Positions 52,511 to 64,000 of a DNA stretch of 64,000 nucleotides are shown piece by piece; within the stretch, counting starts at the first letter, position 1; each line of letters starts with the position of its first letter. The stretch covers positions 61,091 through 125,090 of the forward strand of contig JBBRLJ010000008.1 of the NCBI GenBank assembly GCA_038231435.1, read 5' to 3'. The stretch is from Planctomycetota bacterium. GTDB taxonomy: Bacteria; Planctomycetota; UBA11346. The notes under the pieces are model-generated. The model was not told where the DNA came from. It saw only the letters and a program-made list of their open reading frames with translations, and did no database searches. Both the position numbers and the translations under genes were made by a program.

Positions 52511-53764
52511 GTGCGTCCCCATGTCGCCATCTCGGCCGCGTTGTCCACCGCCTTGCCAACCATCGCGCGCAAGCGCATGGCGGCGCTCGCGTGTTCGGCG
52601 GCGATCTTCACCCTGGTCAACGGCGCTTTCGACGTCGTCGGTCCGCTGTGGGCGACCAGCGATCTCGGGCTCGACGCCGCGGGCTGGGCGCATCTGCGTT
52701 CGATGCGCATGGCCGGGACCTTCATCGGCATCGCGATGCTCGGCGTGGTGTCCGAACACATCGGCGCCCGTTTGATGGGTGCCATCGCCATGGGCCTCGG
52801 CGCGCTCGCCCTTGCTGCGATGGCCGGGTCGCCGACCGCCGCCACCGTGGCGATGCCGGTGTTCGGCGCCTGCATCAGCGCCGGCTACGTGAACCTCAAC
52901 GTGCTCACCCAAGGCGTGTCCACCACCCGGCAGGGCTTGGCCAATGCGCTCTACCGCGGCGTCGGCGCCGCCACCGCGATCGTGGCGCCCACGGCGGCGC
53001 TCGCGGCCGCGGTCCATTTCGGTTCATATGGCGAGGCGCTGCGGATCGGTGCCGCGGTGCTCGCGGTCGGTGGCCTGGTGCTGCTCGCGTACCCGCTCCC
53101 CCGCCGCGGTGAACCGACGCCGCCACTCGGCGCACTGCTCGCGGGCTATGCGCAGGCGCTGCGCCGACGGCCGCTGGTGGCCTTCGTCGCGCTCGAGCAG
53201 TGCTGGTACGCCACCCAGCTGGCGGTGGTGTCGTTCGCCGCCATCCGCCTCACCCGCGAGCTCGGCCTCGCCACGCCCGCCTTCGGCGCGCTCTGCACCG
53301 CCATCGCCATCACCGGACTCGCCGGCACGCTGGTCAGCGGTGCGGCGGAGGCGCGCCTCGGCACCCGGCGGCTGCTCGCGCTGGTATGGTCGGGTGCGAG
53401 CGCATGCGAGCTGGTCATGGGGTTCACCGATTCGCTGCCGGTCACCATGGCCGCGTATGCGGCCTTCTGCACCATCCTGGCCTTCGGCGCCGTGCCGGGA
53501 TCGATGTGGGTGAGCCGCGCCGCGGGTGCCGGCAGCCAGACCACGGCGTTCACAGTCTACAAGATCGGCGGTGCCGGAATCTCCGCCGCCGCGATCGGCG
53601 CGCTGGGTTTCCTCGAGCCGCATACGGGCATGCGCTCGCTGTTCTGGTGCGGTGGGCTGCTGGGGTTGCCCTTCTGCCTGGCGATCCTGCGCCTCGGGAA
53701 TGGAAACTCCGCCGACCCCTCGATGCGTGCTCCGCACACAGCGCTGCCCGGAACCACGCGGTAG
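52511..53764 (+). CDS. MFS transporter
   Basis: About 12 TM; G..SEHIGAR and G....RLGTRR motif-A-like loops; start uncertain (52511/52577). Confidence 0.78.
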   Translation: MRPHVAISAALSTALPTIARKRMAALACSAAIFTLVNGAFDVVGPLWATSDLGLDAAGWAHLRSMRMAGTFIGIAMLGVVSEHIGARLMGAIAMGLGALALAAMAGSPTAATVAMPVFGACISAGYVNLNVLTQGVSTTRQGLANALYRGVGAATAIVAPTAALAAAVHFGSYGEALRIGAAVLAVGGLVLLAYPLPRRGEPTPPLGALLAGYAQALRRRPLVAFVALEQCWYATQLAVVSFAAIRLTRELGLATPAFGALCTAIAITGLAGTLVSGAAEARLGTRRLLALVWSGASACELVMGFTDSLPVTMAAYAAFCTILAFGAVPGSMWVSRAAGAGSQTTAFTVYKIGGAGISAAAIGALGFLEPHTGMRSLFWCGGLLGLPFCLAILRLGNGNSADPSMRAPHTALPGTTR

Positions 53765-53828
53765 ATCGATCTGCAGGACCGTGTGCAACGTCGCTCGACG
53801 ATCCGAGGTCGTTCGGGTGGAGGGGCGG

Positions 53829-53834
53829 TATAAT
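53829..53834 (+). promoter_or_regulatory. Consensus -10 box
   Basis: TATAAT in high-GC context, 6 nt before a hairpin; no clear -35. Confidence 0.6.
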
Positions 53835-53840
53835 CCTCGT

Positions 53841-53979
53841 GTCGGCTGCATACGAACATGCCGACGCCAACGATGTCCGAGCCAGGACGATAGTCCTCGG
53901 CCCGGCATCCCCGAGGACCCGCCCACCGGGCGCGGTCCGATCTTGGACGGCCACCGCGAGGTGGCCGTCCATTTTTTTT
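53841..53979 (+). ncRNA. Putative stand-alone structured small RNA, family not recognised
   Basis: TATAAT, hairpins GTCGGC/GCCGAC, GTCCTCGG/CCGAGGAC, CGCCC/GGGCG, then terminator; next gene is convergent. Confidence 0.6.
53944..53979 (+). terminator. Intrinsic terminator
   Basis: 12-bp stem TGGACGGCCACC/GGTGGCCGTCCA, GCGA loop, T8. Confidence 0.9.
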
Positions 53980-54023
53980 GTCGGGCAGCGATGGCTTCGC
54001 CTGGCCATCCAGGATGATGCTGC

Positions 54024-54557
54024 TTATGGCCTGATGAACGCGCTGCGGCCGCCGATGCCGCCCGACGGCAACCTGAACGCCGGGTCGACACACGCCCGCA
54101 TCAGCGCGACCAGGAAGGTATTCGAATTGGGTCCCAGCAGGCGATAGTCGCCGCGCGAGGTCGGCAGCCTCGGATCGCGGGCGAATGCTCTCGCGGTATC
54201 GGCGAGGCAGGCACAGGGAGCGGCGGACGGGTAGCCGCGCTCGAAGACGGTGCGGGTCCGCACGCCCCCGCCACCCCATCGCTCGATCCCACGCGGATGG
54301 CCATGCGCGTTCGGCAGCGAGAAATCCTCGAGCACCAGCGAGGGCCGTCCGTCCTGGTCGGGAAGCGACCACGGCGGGATCGGCACCTGCCAGAGTTCAT
54401 GGGTTCGCCACGTCGCGGCTTCAGGATCCCCGCTCTGAGCACAGCAGGACTCGACAAACCCATGGCGGCCGACCCACAGGGTCTGCCGTACATACCACAT
54501 CTTGACGCTGATCCGGCACGCCGGCGGCTGTCCCCGGGGGACAACCCCAGGCGTCAC
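54024..54557 (-). CDS. DUF3750-like protein
   Basis: GRHGFV ... YP..DYRLLGPNSNTF...LPSGGIG; GTGA overlap with upstream gene. Confidence 0.6.
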   Translation of the reverse strand: MTPGVVPRGQPPACRISVKMWYVRQTLWVGRHGFVESCCAQSGDPEAATWRTHELWQVPIPPWSLPDQDGRPSLVLEDFSLPNAHGHPRGIERWGGGGVRTRTVFERGYPSAAPCACLADTARAFARDPRLPTSRGDYRLLGPNSNTFLVALMRACVDPAFRLPSGGIGGRSAFIRP

Positions 54558-54793
54558 TCGGCCTTGTCGGCCTCGGCATCGCCGGCTTCGGCGGCTCCCG
54601 CGATGCGCGTGAGCCGCTCGCGGAAGGGGGCGCTGACCTTGCCCACGAACTCGATGATCTTCTCGCGCTTCTGGTCGCTGACGCGCTCGCTGAGGACGGC
54701 AGCCATCTCTTCACGCGTCATCTGCGCGGGCACTTTGCCCTGATCGAGGGCGTTGAGCAGGAGACGGGCGGCGGCTTGCTTGGGGGTCGACAT
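54554..54793 (-). CDS. 79-aa helical hypothetical protein
   Basis: GAGGA RBS, strong codon bias. Confidence 0.7.
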   Translation of the reverse strand: MSTPKQAAARLLLNALDQGKVPAQMTREEMAAVLSERVSDQKREKIIEFVGKVSAPFRERLTRIAGAAEAGDAEADKAE

Positions 54794-55013
54794 GGTGTCC
54801 TCGAGTAGGTGGAACGCGGTTTGGAGGATACTCTCCCCGCCCGAGCCGCAACACGGTAAGCATGTTGACGCGTAAGTAACTATAGAAAAATGAGTTACAG
54901 AACCAGCAAGAGACTATTCCAGCCGCTACTGCGCGTTAGGGCGTGGTAGCCGACGATCGGATTCTGGCCTTTCCGGAGCGCCAAGCCACGTCCAGCGGCA
55001 CTCGATGGTGCCC

Positions 55014-55541
55014 TTAGCCGTTGGCCAGGGCCCCGGGGACTCCGGCCTTCTTGCGGCACGCCTCGCTCAGCTCGCGGATGCGGGCGAAGACCTCGTCGGG
55101 CTTCACCACGCCGTTGAGCGTCACCGAGGGGCTCGAATGATCGACGGTGTCCAGCACCACGTCGCCTACGCCCAGCAGGCGTGGCAGAAGCGGCAATTCG
55201 AGGTGCAGATCGCGCACGCGGTACAGTTCGAGATTGTCCACCCGGCGCATCAGCAGTCCGCGCGTCACCACCAGGCGCTCGGCGGTGAGGTCGTAGCGGA
55301 TCAGGCGCGAAGTGATCCACGCGCACGCGAGATGGACGACGGGGATAGCCAAGCCCACCCACGACCAATGGATCACCGTATCGATCACCGGTTGCCAGGA
55401 TGGCGGAACCTGCAGCCGGGCTGCGAGCAGGGGCAGCCACCAGCGGGCAGCCGCCAGCCCGACACCGACGATCACCCAGGCGGTGATGCGTCCGGCATGC
55501 GAGCGGAGCGCGGGATGTTGGGTCCAGAGCACATCGGCCAT
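55014..55541 (-). CDS. Bacterial PH domain membrane protein
   Basis: 2 TM; RY.LT.ERL...G.L.R..D.LELYRVRD...RLLGVG. Confidence 0.85.
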   Translation of the reverse strand: MADVLWTQHPALRSHAGRITAWVIVGVGLAAARWWLPLLAARLQVPPSWQPVIDTVIHWSWVGLAIPVVHLACAWITSRLIRYDLTAERLVVTRGLLMRRVDNLELYRVRDLHLELPLLPRLLGVGDVVLDTVDHSSPSVTLNGVVKPDEVFARIRELSEACRKKAGVPGALANG

Positions 55542-55621
55542 GCCAAGGCGTACCAGCTCGCCAGCCGCGGTCGAGCGCTCTCGCCCCCACCTCGTCCTCC
55601 CGCCGTGCGCTCTTCCCCGCT

Positions 55622-55700
55622 CCCTGCTCTCTGCTCTCTGCTTTCTGCTTTCCGCTCTCCGCAGTCTCCTCGCTCTTCAGTCTTCAGTCTTCAGTCTTCC
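55622..55700. repeat. Heptamer simple repeats (CTGCTYT)n and (TCTTCAG)3
   Basis: Directly visible; overlaps the ATPase stop. Confidence 0.75.
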
Positions 55701-56834
55701 CGCTTCCCCTTCTCCATCCTCCTCCGTCATCATCACCGCATCCTCGTGCCCAGCGATGCGCGTCTCGCCCTTGCGCTGCACCAGCGGCAAGATTCCCGCG
55801 CGCCCCTCGAGGCGACGCGCCAGCTCCTGCGAATGGGTGGTCACCACCACTTGTCCGCGGCTCGCCGCGGCGGCGATTAATTCGGCCAATGCCGGCACCA
55901 GGTCGGGATGGAGGCTGGTCTCGGGCTCGTTCAGCGCGATCAGCGGCGGAGGCTTCGGACTCAGGCAAGCCGCGGCCAGGCACAGGAAGCGCAGTGTGCC
56001 GTCAGACAGCTCGCGCGCCTGGAAACGACGGAACACGCCGGGCATTCCCCATTCCACCCACAGCCGTCCGTGCTGGTCGGCGGGGATCTCGAGCGTGGCG
56101 CCGGGGAACGCGCTGGCGATGGCCGTGGCCAGCTCCGGCTCACGGTCGGATTCGCCGATGGTCTGCAGCGCGGCGGCGAGATCGCAGCCATCGTGCGCGA
56201 GCGCGTTGGTGCGCACGCCCAGGCGCGGATGGCGCAGCGGCGCGTCGGCGTCGGTGCGGAACTCATGGTAGTGGCGCCAACGCGACATGCCGCCGCGCAA
56301 CAGCGCGAGTTCCGGCCAACGCGCCGGATCGTGCAGCTGGGCGAGGATGGACTCGTTGGTGTCGAGGGGTTCCTCGAGCGCCTGCCAGCGCCCGGCCTCG
56401 TCGCGCAGCTTGGCGCCGAGCCCGCTGCGTTGGCACAGCGAGGTGGTGCCGCCGCCGTCGAGGCGCACCGCGATCTCCTCCTCCTTCACCTCGGGATCGA
56501 GCATGAAGCGGGTGCGTTTCGGCGTCGGCAGCCCGAGCGCGATGCTGTAGATGAAGCGGCCCCAGACGATGCGCACCTTCATGCGCACCACCTCGCCCTT
56601 CTGGCGTCGACCTGCCCACAGCGCCGAGGGCATGCCGCCCTCCTCGCCCATGGTGGCGGCGAGCGTGCCCGAGGCGGCGGCGCTGAGCAACCTGAGCGCG
56701 CGGTAGCAGTTGGTCTTGCCGCAGCCGTTGGGCCCGATCACCAGCGTCAGCGGTGAGAGCCGCAGGCGCAGCTTGCGCAATGAGCGGTAGTTCTCGACGT
56801 CGAGCGCCGTGACGACGGACGCTGCCCGATTCAC
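55677..56834 (-). CDS. Predicted ABC/SMC-like ATPase (AAA_21 type)
   Basis: [35 protein letters not shown] overlap with tdh stop. Confidence 0.88.
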
Positions 56835-57865
56835 CAATCGAGCACGACCTTGCCCGAAGTGCCTTCGCGCATGGCCTTGAAGCCCTCGAGGAAATCGTCC
56901 ACCGGCAGGCGGTGGGTGACCACCGCCGAGATGTCGAGGCCGCTCTGCAGCATGCTCGTCATCTTGTACCAGGTCTCGAACATCTCGCGGCCGTAGACGC
57001 CCTTCATCACCAGGCCCTTGAAGATCACCTTGCTCCAGTCGATCGCCACCGGCTTGGGGAAAATGCCGAGGATTGCGACGCGTCCGCCGTGATTCATCGC
57101 ATCGAGCATCGATTGGAATGCCTCGCCGTTTCCGGACATCTCAAGGCCGACGTCGAAGCCCTCGGTCATGCCGAGCGCAGCCATCACGTCCTGCAATGAA
57201 CCGGAACGCGGATCGTGGACCCTGGTCGCGCCCATGCGGCGGGCGAGCTCGAGCCGGTAGGGATTCACGTCGGTCACCACCACGTGGCGCGCGCCGACGT
57301 GGCGCGCGATCGCCGCGGCCATGCAGCCGATCGGTCCGGCGCCGGTGATCAGCACGTCTTCGCCGACCAGATCGAAGGACAGCGCGGTGTGGGTCGCGTT
57401 GCCATAGGGATCGAAGATGCTCGCGACCTCGTCCGAGACGTCGTCGGGCAGCTTGAAGGCGTTCGACGCCGGGAGATCGAGGAATTCGCCGAAGCAGCCA
57501 GGGCGGTTGACGCCGAGCCCTTGGGTGTTGCGACAGAGGTGGCGGCGTCCGGCGCGGCAGTTGCGGCAGTGTCCGCAGGTGATGTGGCCCTCGCCCGAGA
57601 CGCGGTCGCCCGGGGCGAAGCCCACCACCGCCGCGCCCACGCGCTCGACCACGCCCACGAACTCGTGCCCGGTGACCATCGGCACCGGGATGGTCGCGCG
57701 CGCCCATTCGTCCCAGTTGAAGATGTGCAGGTCGGTGCCGCAGATCGCGGTCTTGCGCGTGCGGATCAGCAGGTCGTTGGGGCCGATCTCAGGGATGGGC
57801 ACGTCCTGCATCCACAGCCCAGGCTCGCGGCTGGCTTTGACCAAGGCTTTCATGGTGCTGGACAT
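56831..57865 (-). CDS. tdh: L-threonine 3-dehydrogenase
   Basis: [19 protein letters not shown]...[22 protein letters not shown]. Confidence 0.95.
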
Positions 57866-57919
57866 GAGGGTTCCTGGAGCTGTCTACGAGGGCGGCATCG
57901 AGCGGACTTCAGACGGACA

Positions 57920-59107
<1,188 letters not shown>

Positions 59108-59265
59108 GCGCTGGCTCCGTACGCACCGTACGCCGCGCGACGCGCGGGAAACCGATTCTGCTCCTCCCGGTCGCCGTCCCTGGTCAAAGCTCAAGGCCGT
59201 TACGCTCGCCGCCTCGCGCGCGGCGCCCGGAGTTGTGCGAGGCTCTCGGCTTCTACAGTGCCGCC

Positions 59266-63146: not shown

Positions 63147-63830
63147 ATGGCCCTTGAAACCACGGACATCCTGCTGCGCATCGGCGTCGCGCTCATCGCC
63201 AGCGCGGTGATCGGCTTCGAGCGCGAAAGCCACGGCCGCGCGGCCGGCCTGCGCACCACGGTGCTGGTCGGTGTCGCCGCCGCTTTGGCGATGATCCTTT
63301 CCGAGATCCTCTTCGACAGCGCCGCCAGCCCGGGTGCCGGCTGGCGGCCCGATCCCGCGCGCTTGGCCGCCGGAGTGCTCACCGGCATGGGCTTCCTCGG
63401 CGCCGGCACCATCATCCGCGAGGGCAACGTCATCCGCGGCGTGACCACGGCCGCGACCCTGTGGATGGTGGCGATGCTCGGCCTGGCCTTCGGTTCAGGA
63501 CAACTGTTGCTCGGCGGCATCGGCTGGGGCGTGGCGGTGTTCACGCTCTTCGTGCTGCCCAGCGTCGAACACTTCGTGAAGAACGACTGGTACGGGACCC
63601 TGACCCTGCAGGTGTCGATGGACGGCATCGGCGAGGATGAGGTACGGCGCCGGCTGAAGACGCTCGGAGTATCGGTCAAACGACTCGAGCTCGACTACGA
63701 TCTGGTGCGCAAGACGCGCTTCATCACCCTCGAAGTGAAATTCAAGAAGGAGGACCTGTTCGAGCTGACCCAACGCATCGTCGCCGATCTGGTCGGAGCT
63801 CCCGGCATCCTCGAGATCAAGTGGCGCTGA
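63147..63830 (+). CDS. MgtC/SapB family protein
   Basis: IGFERE....AGLRT, DPARLAAGV..GMGFLGAG.I, GVTTAA.LW. Confidence 0.92.
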   Translation: MALETTDILLRIGVALIASAVIGFERESHGRAAGLRTTVLVGVAAALAMILSEILFDSAASPGAGWRPDPARLAAGVLTGMGFLGAGTIIREGNVIRGVTTAATLWMVAMLGLAFGSGQLLLGGIGWGVAVFTLFVLPSVEHFVKNDWYGTLTLQVSMDGIGEDEVRRRLKTLGVSVKRLELDYDLVRKTRFITLEVKFKKEDLFELTQRIVADLVGAPGILEIKWR

Positions 63831-63835
63831 TAGTC

Positions 63836-63903
63836 GGGGGCTCCGCCCCCAAACCCCCACGGCCTTTGTCGTCCTTCTTTTTGTCCGCCGGGCGGCCAAA
63901 AAG
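63836..63903. repeat. REP/MITE-like palindromic element
   Basis: GGGGGC-TCC-GCCCCC AAACCCCC followed by a CTTTTTG...CAAAAAG hairpin. Confidence 0.45.
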
Positions 63904-64000
63904 TTTGGTTCTTCACGGAATATCGGGAATCGAGCTCTAAGAGCGGGATAGAAAAGGACATCGGCGGCCAGGGCGGCAGGTTGTGGTTACCACGCCAACA

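Follow-up and report, generated by a model that had tools for sequence, protein, structure and literature searches.

Results

Gene order and transcription signals

Between a gene for an MFS transporter on the forward strand (stop at 53764) and a convergent DUF3750-like gene on the minus strand (stop at 54024) there is a candidate RNA unit, which we analysed within a 64-kb window (the whole stretch of DNA under study). The unit is stand-alone in its layout, consisting of a -10 box, a series of hairpins and an intrinsic terminator (Table 1), and the predicted RNA, running from G53841 to 53979, is ~139 nt long. Its start would lie 76 nt beyond the MFS stop, and the DUF3750-like gene stops 45 nt beyond the U-tract. 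The latter gene has an Atlas feature score of 0.94 to the DUF3750 cluster, and no other protein match was found for it at E 1e-3. Genes on the minus strand extend from 54024 to 59194, and no co-oriented gene stands behind the terminator. Two further features of this stretch are a 79-aa ORF on the minus strand (54554-54793), which has no NCBIfam match and is kept in both congeners at 75-77% DNA identity, and a pyrimidine-rich, low-complexity region of short repeats between the AAA_21 and bPH_2 genes (55620-55700).

No -35 consensus is present at the unit, and a consensus promoter scan returned 0 sites. Six nucleotides separate the -10 box from hairpin 1, whose first base is a purine; G53841 was placed from the -10 spacing and is a candidate start only. 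The host genome has a GC content of 67% and contains 122 copies of TATAAT on both strands together, and the chance of finding one in a given 4-nt slot is ~5e-5. Genome-wide, two of 30 strong terminators have a TATAAT within 260 nt upstream, with an expectation of ~0.09. The terminator of the unit is the sole one found in 53400-54400; the scan brought up none belonging to the convergent DUF3750-like gene. A previous sequence-only reading of this DNA had pointed to the -10 hexamer, to hairpin 1, to a GNRA-capped terminator with eight T, to an 11-aa mini-ORF and to the convergent orientation of the next gene, all of which are present.

Upstream of the -10 box is a heptamer, TGTGCAA, that may be a weak regulator site. 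Of 1112 -10 hexamers in the genome, three have its core GTGCAA 46-47 nt ahead of them, against an expectation of 1.5 for the full search window, and two of these three sites had served to define the motif. The three sites are that of the window (53782-53788), one on host contig C7 (~106485) and one on the minus strand of host contig C26 (~79708), before a response-regulator-like gene; it is possible that TGTGCAA is a common regulator site for the three promoters.

Table 1. Features of the element, its neighbours and comparable units elsewhere in the host genome (window positions unless a contig is named; P, pair probability)
Feature	Position	Strand	Evidence
MFS transporter gene, start codon approximate	52574..53764	+	Pfam MFS_1, E 2.5e-10
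TGTGCAA box, possible regulator site (weak)	53782..53788	+	~47 nt before -10 box
-10 box TATAAT, GG in front	53829..53834	+	sequence; no change listed in relative X6
Hairpin 1: 6-bp stem, 13-nt A/U-richer loop 53847-53859 (candidate seed)	53841..53865	+	P ~1.0; -9.7 kcal/mol
Mini-ORF MPTPTMSEPGR; inner AUG 53873 gives MSEPGR	53858..53893	+	translation; stop between A and B
Hairpin 2 of dominant fold: A (53872-53888) with B (53893-53909), GAUA loop	53872..53909	+	-22.3 kcal/mol; P 0.94-1.0
Alternative helix B:C (hairpin 2 of the sequence-only reading)	53893..53918	+	-12.8 kcal/mol; P 0.0 unmasked
Hairpin 3 (C:D), C-rich top	53915..53938	+	-17.7 kcal/mol
Potential antiterminator D:E, 5 bp	53935..53948	+	forms in masked-A predictions
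Intrinsic terminator: 12 bp, GCGA loop, U8	stem 53944-53971, T8 53972-53979	+ only	-26.2 kcal/mol
DUF3750-like gene, called product 158 aa	54024..54557	-	Pfam DUF3750, E 0.035, below cut-off
C7 unit, ~85-105 nt	host contig C7:106533-106628 (L062, L071)		-10 box, two hairpins, strong terminator
C21 unit, 167 nt	host contig C21:51631-51810 (L063)		TATAAT and strong terminator; no Rfam match
C10 unit, 115 nt	host contig C10, from 47658	-	TATAAT and strong terminator

Predicted fold and mini-ORF

The RNA is predicted to fold at -89.6 kcal/mol (z -8.17), a stability reached by none of 200 shuffles. The sequence-only reading had described an unpaired stretch with near-repeats after hairpin 1; the near-repeats are there (53866-53875 and 53881-53893), but most of the stretch is paired as segments A and B of hairpin 2, leaving only the linker before 53872 open. 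The hairpin 2 of that reading, B:C, lies outside the dominant fold, and since forcing it costs 13.5 kcal/mol, its competitor at 53915-53938, correctly recognised as a hairpin and mistakenly classed as the alternative, is instead the dominant one.

GGAC and GUCC alternate along the stems, such that the segments can pair either as A:B, C:D and E:F, which is the terminated form, or as B:C and D:E, which opens the base of the terminator. Helix B:C is predicted to form only once A is masked, with P 0.84-0.95 for 3' ends at 53950-53966. With A masked, D:E has P 0.95 at end 53950, 0.24 at 53958, 0.94 at 53966, 0.36 at 53969 and 0.0 at 53972; with nothing masked its P is 0.0. Modelled in this way, the helices would compete in an attenuator-like cascade leading up to the terminator, a point that the sequence-only reading missed. 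Three stems contain GGAC at a 30-nt spacing, and the three GGA, at 53885, 53915 and 53945 (two of them within AGGA), all lie in stems (P ~1). The 4-mer common to the three 5' arms was seen in 298 of 3000 controls, and neither TRF nor autocorrelation gave a 30-nt tandem periodicity, which was rejected. Hairpin 3 and the terminator hairpin are alike in sequence to a degree equalled in 19 of 3000 controls.

The mini-ORF has its stop between A and B and its first AUG inside hairpin 1. No SD-like sequence precedes either of its AUG codons, in a host that does use SD sequences (30% of 2035 first ATGs, compared with 8% of internal ATGs).

Sequence constraint in a relative

Three other studies have DNA runs (X5, X6 and X7) with contigs over the element. 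The most informative comparison is with X6, a relative that is ~90% identical in the flanking genes and is represented by one contig at depth 6. Over the 79 nt of the -10 box and the 5' part of the RNA (53826-53904) a single change is listed for X6. The neighbouring coding sequence has 25 within 266 nt (Fisher test, p 0.008), and the non-coding DNA next to the element has 14 within 50 nt (p 5e-6). The table of changes leaves out 42 rows; five of the 14 differences on the X6 contig over the element are listed, the other nine may include 53905-53935, and the result covers the promoter and 5' RNA part only. The constraint begins at the -10 box, with four changes in the 14 nt immediately upstream. 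In the flanking genes, all 10 listed X6 changes in the MFS gene fall at codon position 1 or 3, and 9 of the 15 listed in the DUF3750-like gene fall at third positions. The sole listed change within 53826-53904 is at 53870, an unpaired base that is T in X5, X6 and X7 alike, turning codon 5 of the mini-ORF from Thr to Ser. Comparison of aligned letters thus indicates that, in one relative and for the 5' part, the element is constrained above its flanks. X7 has 15 differences and 19 gap letters, mostly unplaced; the contigs of a further run, X3, end at 53836 and restart at 53982, and such a gap proves nothing. No RNA datasets holding the element were listed.

The same data bear on whether the unit is simply the end of the MFS transcript, that is, a long 3' UTR with its terminator or a piece processed from it, with the TATAAT unused or of minor use. 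No other terminator was found beyond the MFS stop, this one acts on the MFS strand, the unit has no -35 box, and long 3' UTRs are frequent, as are sRNAs derived from 3' UTRs (types I and II; PMC7821165). Nevertheless, constraint sets in at the -10 box and not at the MFS stop, the TATAAT is a rare hexamer placed at an exact spacing from hairpin 1, and three MFS orthologues in the family have no similar element, all of which makes this origin unlikely.

Known RNA families and homologue searches

No Rfam 15 family reached its gathering cut-off in the window. The best Rfam match of the element is RF02870 ncS035 (20.3 bits against a gathering threshold of 79, E 0.063, spanning 53839-53978), and riboswitch families are absent from its matches at E up to 10. 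The covariance-model check that the sequence-only reading had proposed therefore returned no known family, and its opinion that the RNA is not a tRNA, SRP RNA, tmRNA or RNase P RNA holds: no such model matches the element, and the housekeeping RNAs are found elsewhere in the host genome, with 6S RNA on C11 (47 bits), SRP RNA on C3 (42 bits), tmRNA and tRNA-Sec (by ARAGORN) and an RNase P motif on C11. An HDV-like ribozyme was rejected by eye against the features of that class. The element is single-copy in the host genome. We found no paper on this RNA; supplementary lists of non-Rfam structured-RNA candidates may bear on its novelty.

Of the homologues for which the sequence-only reading had proposed a search, none turned up in the 47 genomes of the family, in 150 of the phylum or, with the patterns used, in public collections. 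BLAST against 60 relatives, including 36 of the 47 family genomes, gave 11 short non-self matches, of which the 10 that were re-aligned and inspected were all due to chance. A covariance model (R1) built from the single sequence, with hairpins 1-3 and without the terminator, was run on all 47 family genomes and gave five matches of 25-30 bits, none of which had a -10 box or a terminator at the expected place. It gave none in 27 genomes of a class search that returned this family only, and none at E 0.001 in 150 genomes of the phylum, with 26 candidates scored per genome; because the model was built from one sequence, distant homologues could be missed. Five handles rescored with more candidates reached 30 bits at best.

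Pattern searches in larger collections gave the same picture. An exact 21-mer had no match in metagenomes, and a 17-mer had 12 matches in viral contigs, all chance. The terminator pattern occurred in no viral contig and at 109 metagenome loci; none of these is homologous among the local alignments listed, and the covariance model, run on 100 of the 109, scored 18 bits at best. A hairpin-2 pattern gave eight chance matches in genome contigs, a promoter and hairpin-1 pattern gave eight unrelated viral matches, and a promoter-start pattern occurred in the family at control-level counts, with none of 50 inspected loci homologous. Plasmid and phage collections had no match. Nearer to the host, the two congeners (61 and 79% complete) have no match to the MFS or the DUF3750-like gene and carry no such RNA beside the neighbours that they share with the host, and nothing similar lies alongside the three MFS orthologues of the family.

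These searches brought up two unrelated groups of loci. In genus g7, the loci L223 (G063), L252 (G062) and L254 (G064) have a conserved promoter and 5' hairpin before the same gene, which is LOG-family-like by eye; the motif is possibly a cis-regulatory element. Furthermore, 13 metagenome loci (L107, L114, L131, L151, L157, L158, L161, L176, L188, L192, L193, L195 and L196) have in common a structured stretch with a tRNA-like CCA end before the terminator, and many of them are followed by a conserved ORF. An Rfam tmRNA match lies ~300 nt upstream of this stretch in L107, L158 and L161, and the L161 alignment breaks off at the T-loop. These loci resemble tmRNA genes split by an intron, possibly one of group I. 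Kinship of the element with tmRNA 3' regions that have the same terminator was rejected.

Comparable units and repeats in the lineage

When units with a -10 box and a terminator were tallied across the host genome, 25 entries resulted, and REP-like repeats make up many of these. Four are clean candidates for stand-alone units: the present element, which is the most folded of them, and the C7, C21 and C10 units. The C7 unit has no Rfam match. One congener carries its orthologue in synteny (G002:C183; L065, L070), upstream of a gene for an Ala/Lys/Glu-rich membrane protein and recognisable by its terminator alone, and another genus has a likely member (G018:C224; L072). All three have in common a short ACCGG(C/T)TCC motif and the terminator stem, and the C7 unit holds more promise for a covariation analysis than the present element. 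Another unit of G018 (C373:4093-4270; L260, L270), with TATAAT, hairpins and terminator in ~165 nt, is weakly similar to the C7 family. With three other such units in the genome, one of which has relatives, RNAs built of promoter, hairpins and terminator appear to be a feature of the lineage. Paralogy of the element with the C7 unit was rejected: against three C7 members, 144, 181 and 79 of 200 shuffles score equally. When promoter flanks are included, 13 of 1000 shuffles align as well to the C7 unit as the element does.

A REP/BIME-like palindromic repeat of ~145 nt occurs genome-wide, with 102 anchored units and 292 profile matches at E below 1e-5. Copies are often in tandem, each with TATAAT or TACAAT beside its hairpin, and show compensatory stem changes among them; one lies near 63826-63906 of the window, and both congeners have related short repeats. 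The element could be a decayed or co-opted copy of this repeat, which likewise bears TATAAT/TACAAT and has a similar stem, now fused to a terminator; only 12 of 1000 shuffles align as well to the repeat consensus. We consider this very unlikely, as an nhmmer profile of the 102 units does not match the element, alone or in a genome scan, at E up to 20, and the constraint seen in X6 speaks against neutral decay.

Discussion

A candidate small-RNA gene and its possible partners

The -10 spacing, the constraint that begins at the -10 box, the lack of an Rfam family and the presence of the housekeeping RNAs elsewhere in the genome together make a free-standing small RNA the best-supported reading. 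The proposal of the sequence-only reading, an RNA with its own -10 box and terminator, is in this respect supported, even though a -35 box is lacking. More specifically, we hypothesize that the element is a lineage-restricted, Hfq-independent, trans-acting sRNA gene of ~139 nt that works by base-pairing, to which we assign a probability of about 0.45; that the unit is an independent RNA with its own transcript, in whichever of these readings, is probable. It belongs to no described family, and we regard it as a real candidate for a constrained, lineage-restricted small-RNA gene.

On this small-RNA reading, RNA polymerase with the housekeeping sigma factor would start at G53841 from the TATAAT, transcription would end at the U8 terminator, as its strong consensus suggests, and the product would fold into three hairpins and the terminator. 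By analogy with other sRNAs it would then most likely pair with other mRNAs and regulate them independently of Hfq, ProQ and CsrA, through its few open segments, namely the 13-nt loop of hairpin 1, the C-rich linker and the top of hairpin 3. Pairing seeds are scarce, because few bases are unpaired, and a scan for exact complements found no standout target; the best match of loop 1 is one 12-mer that has no obvious connection to any start codon. Since Hfq, ProQ and CsrA were not found in the host genome (88% complete) and matches to KhpA/B lie below cut-off, no chaperone is in hand, and a true sRNA would need some other chaperone or would have to act unaided.

A protein partner was considered as well. 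The sequence-only reading had suggested titration of a protein through AGGA motifs; the motifs exist, two AGGA and three GGA in all, and CsrA is encoded in 41 of the 47 other family genomes, yet csrA was found in none of the three genomes of the host's genus (the host and two congeners, 88, 79 and 61% complete), nor in G018, which possibly reflects a lineage-specific loss. With csrA not found in the genus and the GGAs buried in stems, where a sponge would have several exposed in loops, a CsrA/RsmA sponge is extremely unlikely. An RNA that titrates or scaffolds some other protein, recognised by overall shape or by the three GGAC stems (GGAC at 53885, 53915 and 53945), would fit a molecule that is nearly all paired and short of seeds, and whose stems are near-invariant in X6. 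There is no candidate protein for it, however, and the GGAC stems lack tandem periodicity and share a 4-mer that is common in controls, so that we hold a non-CsrA protein-binding role to be rather unlikely.

A possible fold switch facing a convergent gene

From the convergent orientation of the next gene the sequence-only reading had concluded that the RNA could not be a riboswitch, which is wrong in principle: antisense-acting riboswitches have been described, and one survey gives the S-box at ubiG-mccBA in Clostridium acetobutylicum and the cobalamin riboswitch at pocR in Listeria as examples (PMC9943018). The element could by this precedent be an antisense-acting attenuator, in which masking of A, by a ribosome on the mini-ORF or by another factor, would let B:C and D:E pair, open the base of the terminator and allow transcription to continue antisense into the DUF3750-like gene, from where it might go on towards tdh-kbl at 2.9 kb distance. 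Full translation, with A and B both masked, or none at all would end in termination.

Several predictions suit such a switch. With A masked, B:C and D:E average ~0.94 at nascent ends 53950 and 53966, and D:E is at ~0 when no segment is masked and also when A and B both are; the mini-ORF stop is positioned between A and B; and the convergent gene has no intrinsic terminator found. The cascade appears in seven of 500 controls that preserve architecture and base content, and equally strongly in one of the 500, by a stricter metric that was picked after an earlier, looser test had proved unselective (67-74 of 400 controls).

Against it stand an antiterminator of just 5 bp whose P falls to 0.24 at end 53958, and which at full length with A masked still loses to the terminator by 6 kcal/mol, and the lack of an SD before either AUG in a host that uses them, the first AUG being in hairpin 1. 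The shared 4-mer (298 of 3000 controls) and the likeness of hairpin 3 to the terminator (19 of 3000) also weigh against it; because of that likeness, a local duplication could give the D:E cross-pairing without selection. Thr5 of the mini-ORF is Ser in three relatives, weakening any link to Thr sensing, the downstream genes are not kept together in the congeners, and no sense gene to control lies behind the terminator. We therefore judge an antisense-acting attenuator of any kind unlikely, and slightly less likely still the version in which a leader peptide and its ribosome exert the control, with no sense gene, antisense read-through and a terminated 139-nt form that may itself be an sRNA. 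Of the marks of a leader peptide, the ORF is there, with no SD before either AUG and a codon 5 that varies between Thr and Ser, and a co-oriented downstream gene was looked for and is absent.

The antisense-attenuator reading is nevertheless one worth an experiment. If true, it would extend the antisense-acting riboswitches to translation-sensing attenuators, and antisense transcription driven by an attenuator that senses ribosomes would, if the fold switch is real, be a new arrangement of known parts.

Comparison with known systems

Sponges of the CsrB/RsmZ type expose several GGA motifs in loops. The element resembles them as a stand-alone structured RNA with GGA, and differs in having three GGA only, all paired, in a genus where csrA was not found. 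Its likeness to RF02870 ncS035 (Burkholderia sRNA 35) consists of a comparable hairpin count and a terminator; many pairs of the third helix are broken, and the likeness is one of generic architecture, not of homology.

In attenuators of the his/thr type, six segments pair as A:B, C:D and E:F or as B:C and D:E, and a short ORF ends between A and B. The element is predicted to have the same segment scheme, and its ORF stop is placed likewise; in contrast to these attenuators it has no sense gene downstream, no SD and no run of a single codon, and its antiterminator is 5 bp long. With the antisense-acting riboswitches it would have in common a promoter and a switchable terminator directed towards the 3' end of a convergent gene, the switch being here a prediction; unlike them it contains no known aptamer, and its terminated fold is favoured by 11.7 kcal/mol, so that nothing short of a ribosome or a strong binder could flip it. 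Neither 'leader peptide' nor 'threonine' appears as a term in the survey of these riboswitches (PMC9943018).

The small-RNA reading finds its closest counterparts elsewhere. SBP_bac_10 (DUF1559-type) domains are associated with PVC bacteria, and the host carries them; sRNAs of the PVC group are barely catalogued, with eight annotated in Table 1 of PMC9029176. As one of about four orphan sRNA candidates in its genome, the element would be of moderate interest. Compared with orphan intergenic sRNAs it has no family match, its host has no Hfq or ProQ that we could find, and it has unusually little single-stranded sequence. It shares with them a size of 100-200 nt, hairpins followed by a strong U-tailed terminator and a narrow taxonomic range, as well as, with those of the 3'-region type I (as described in PMC7821165), a -10 box of its own shortly downstream of a coding sequence.
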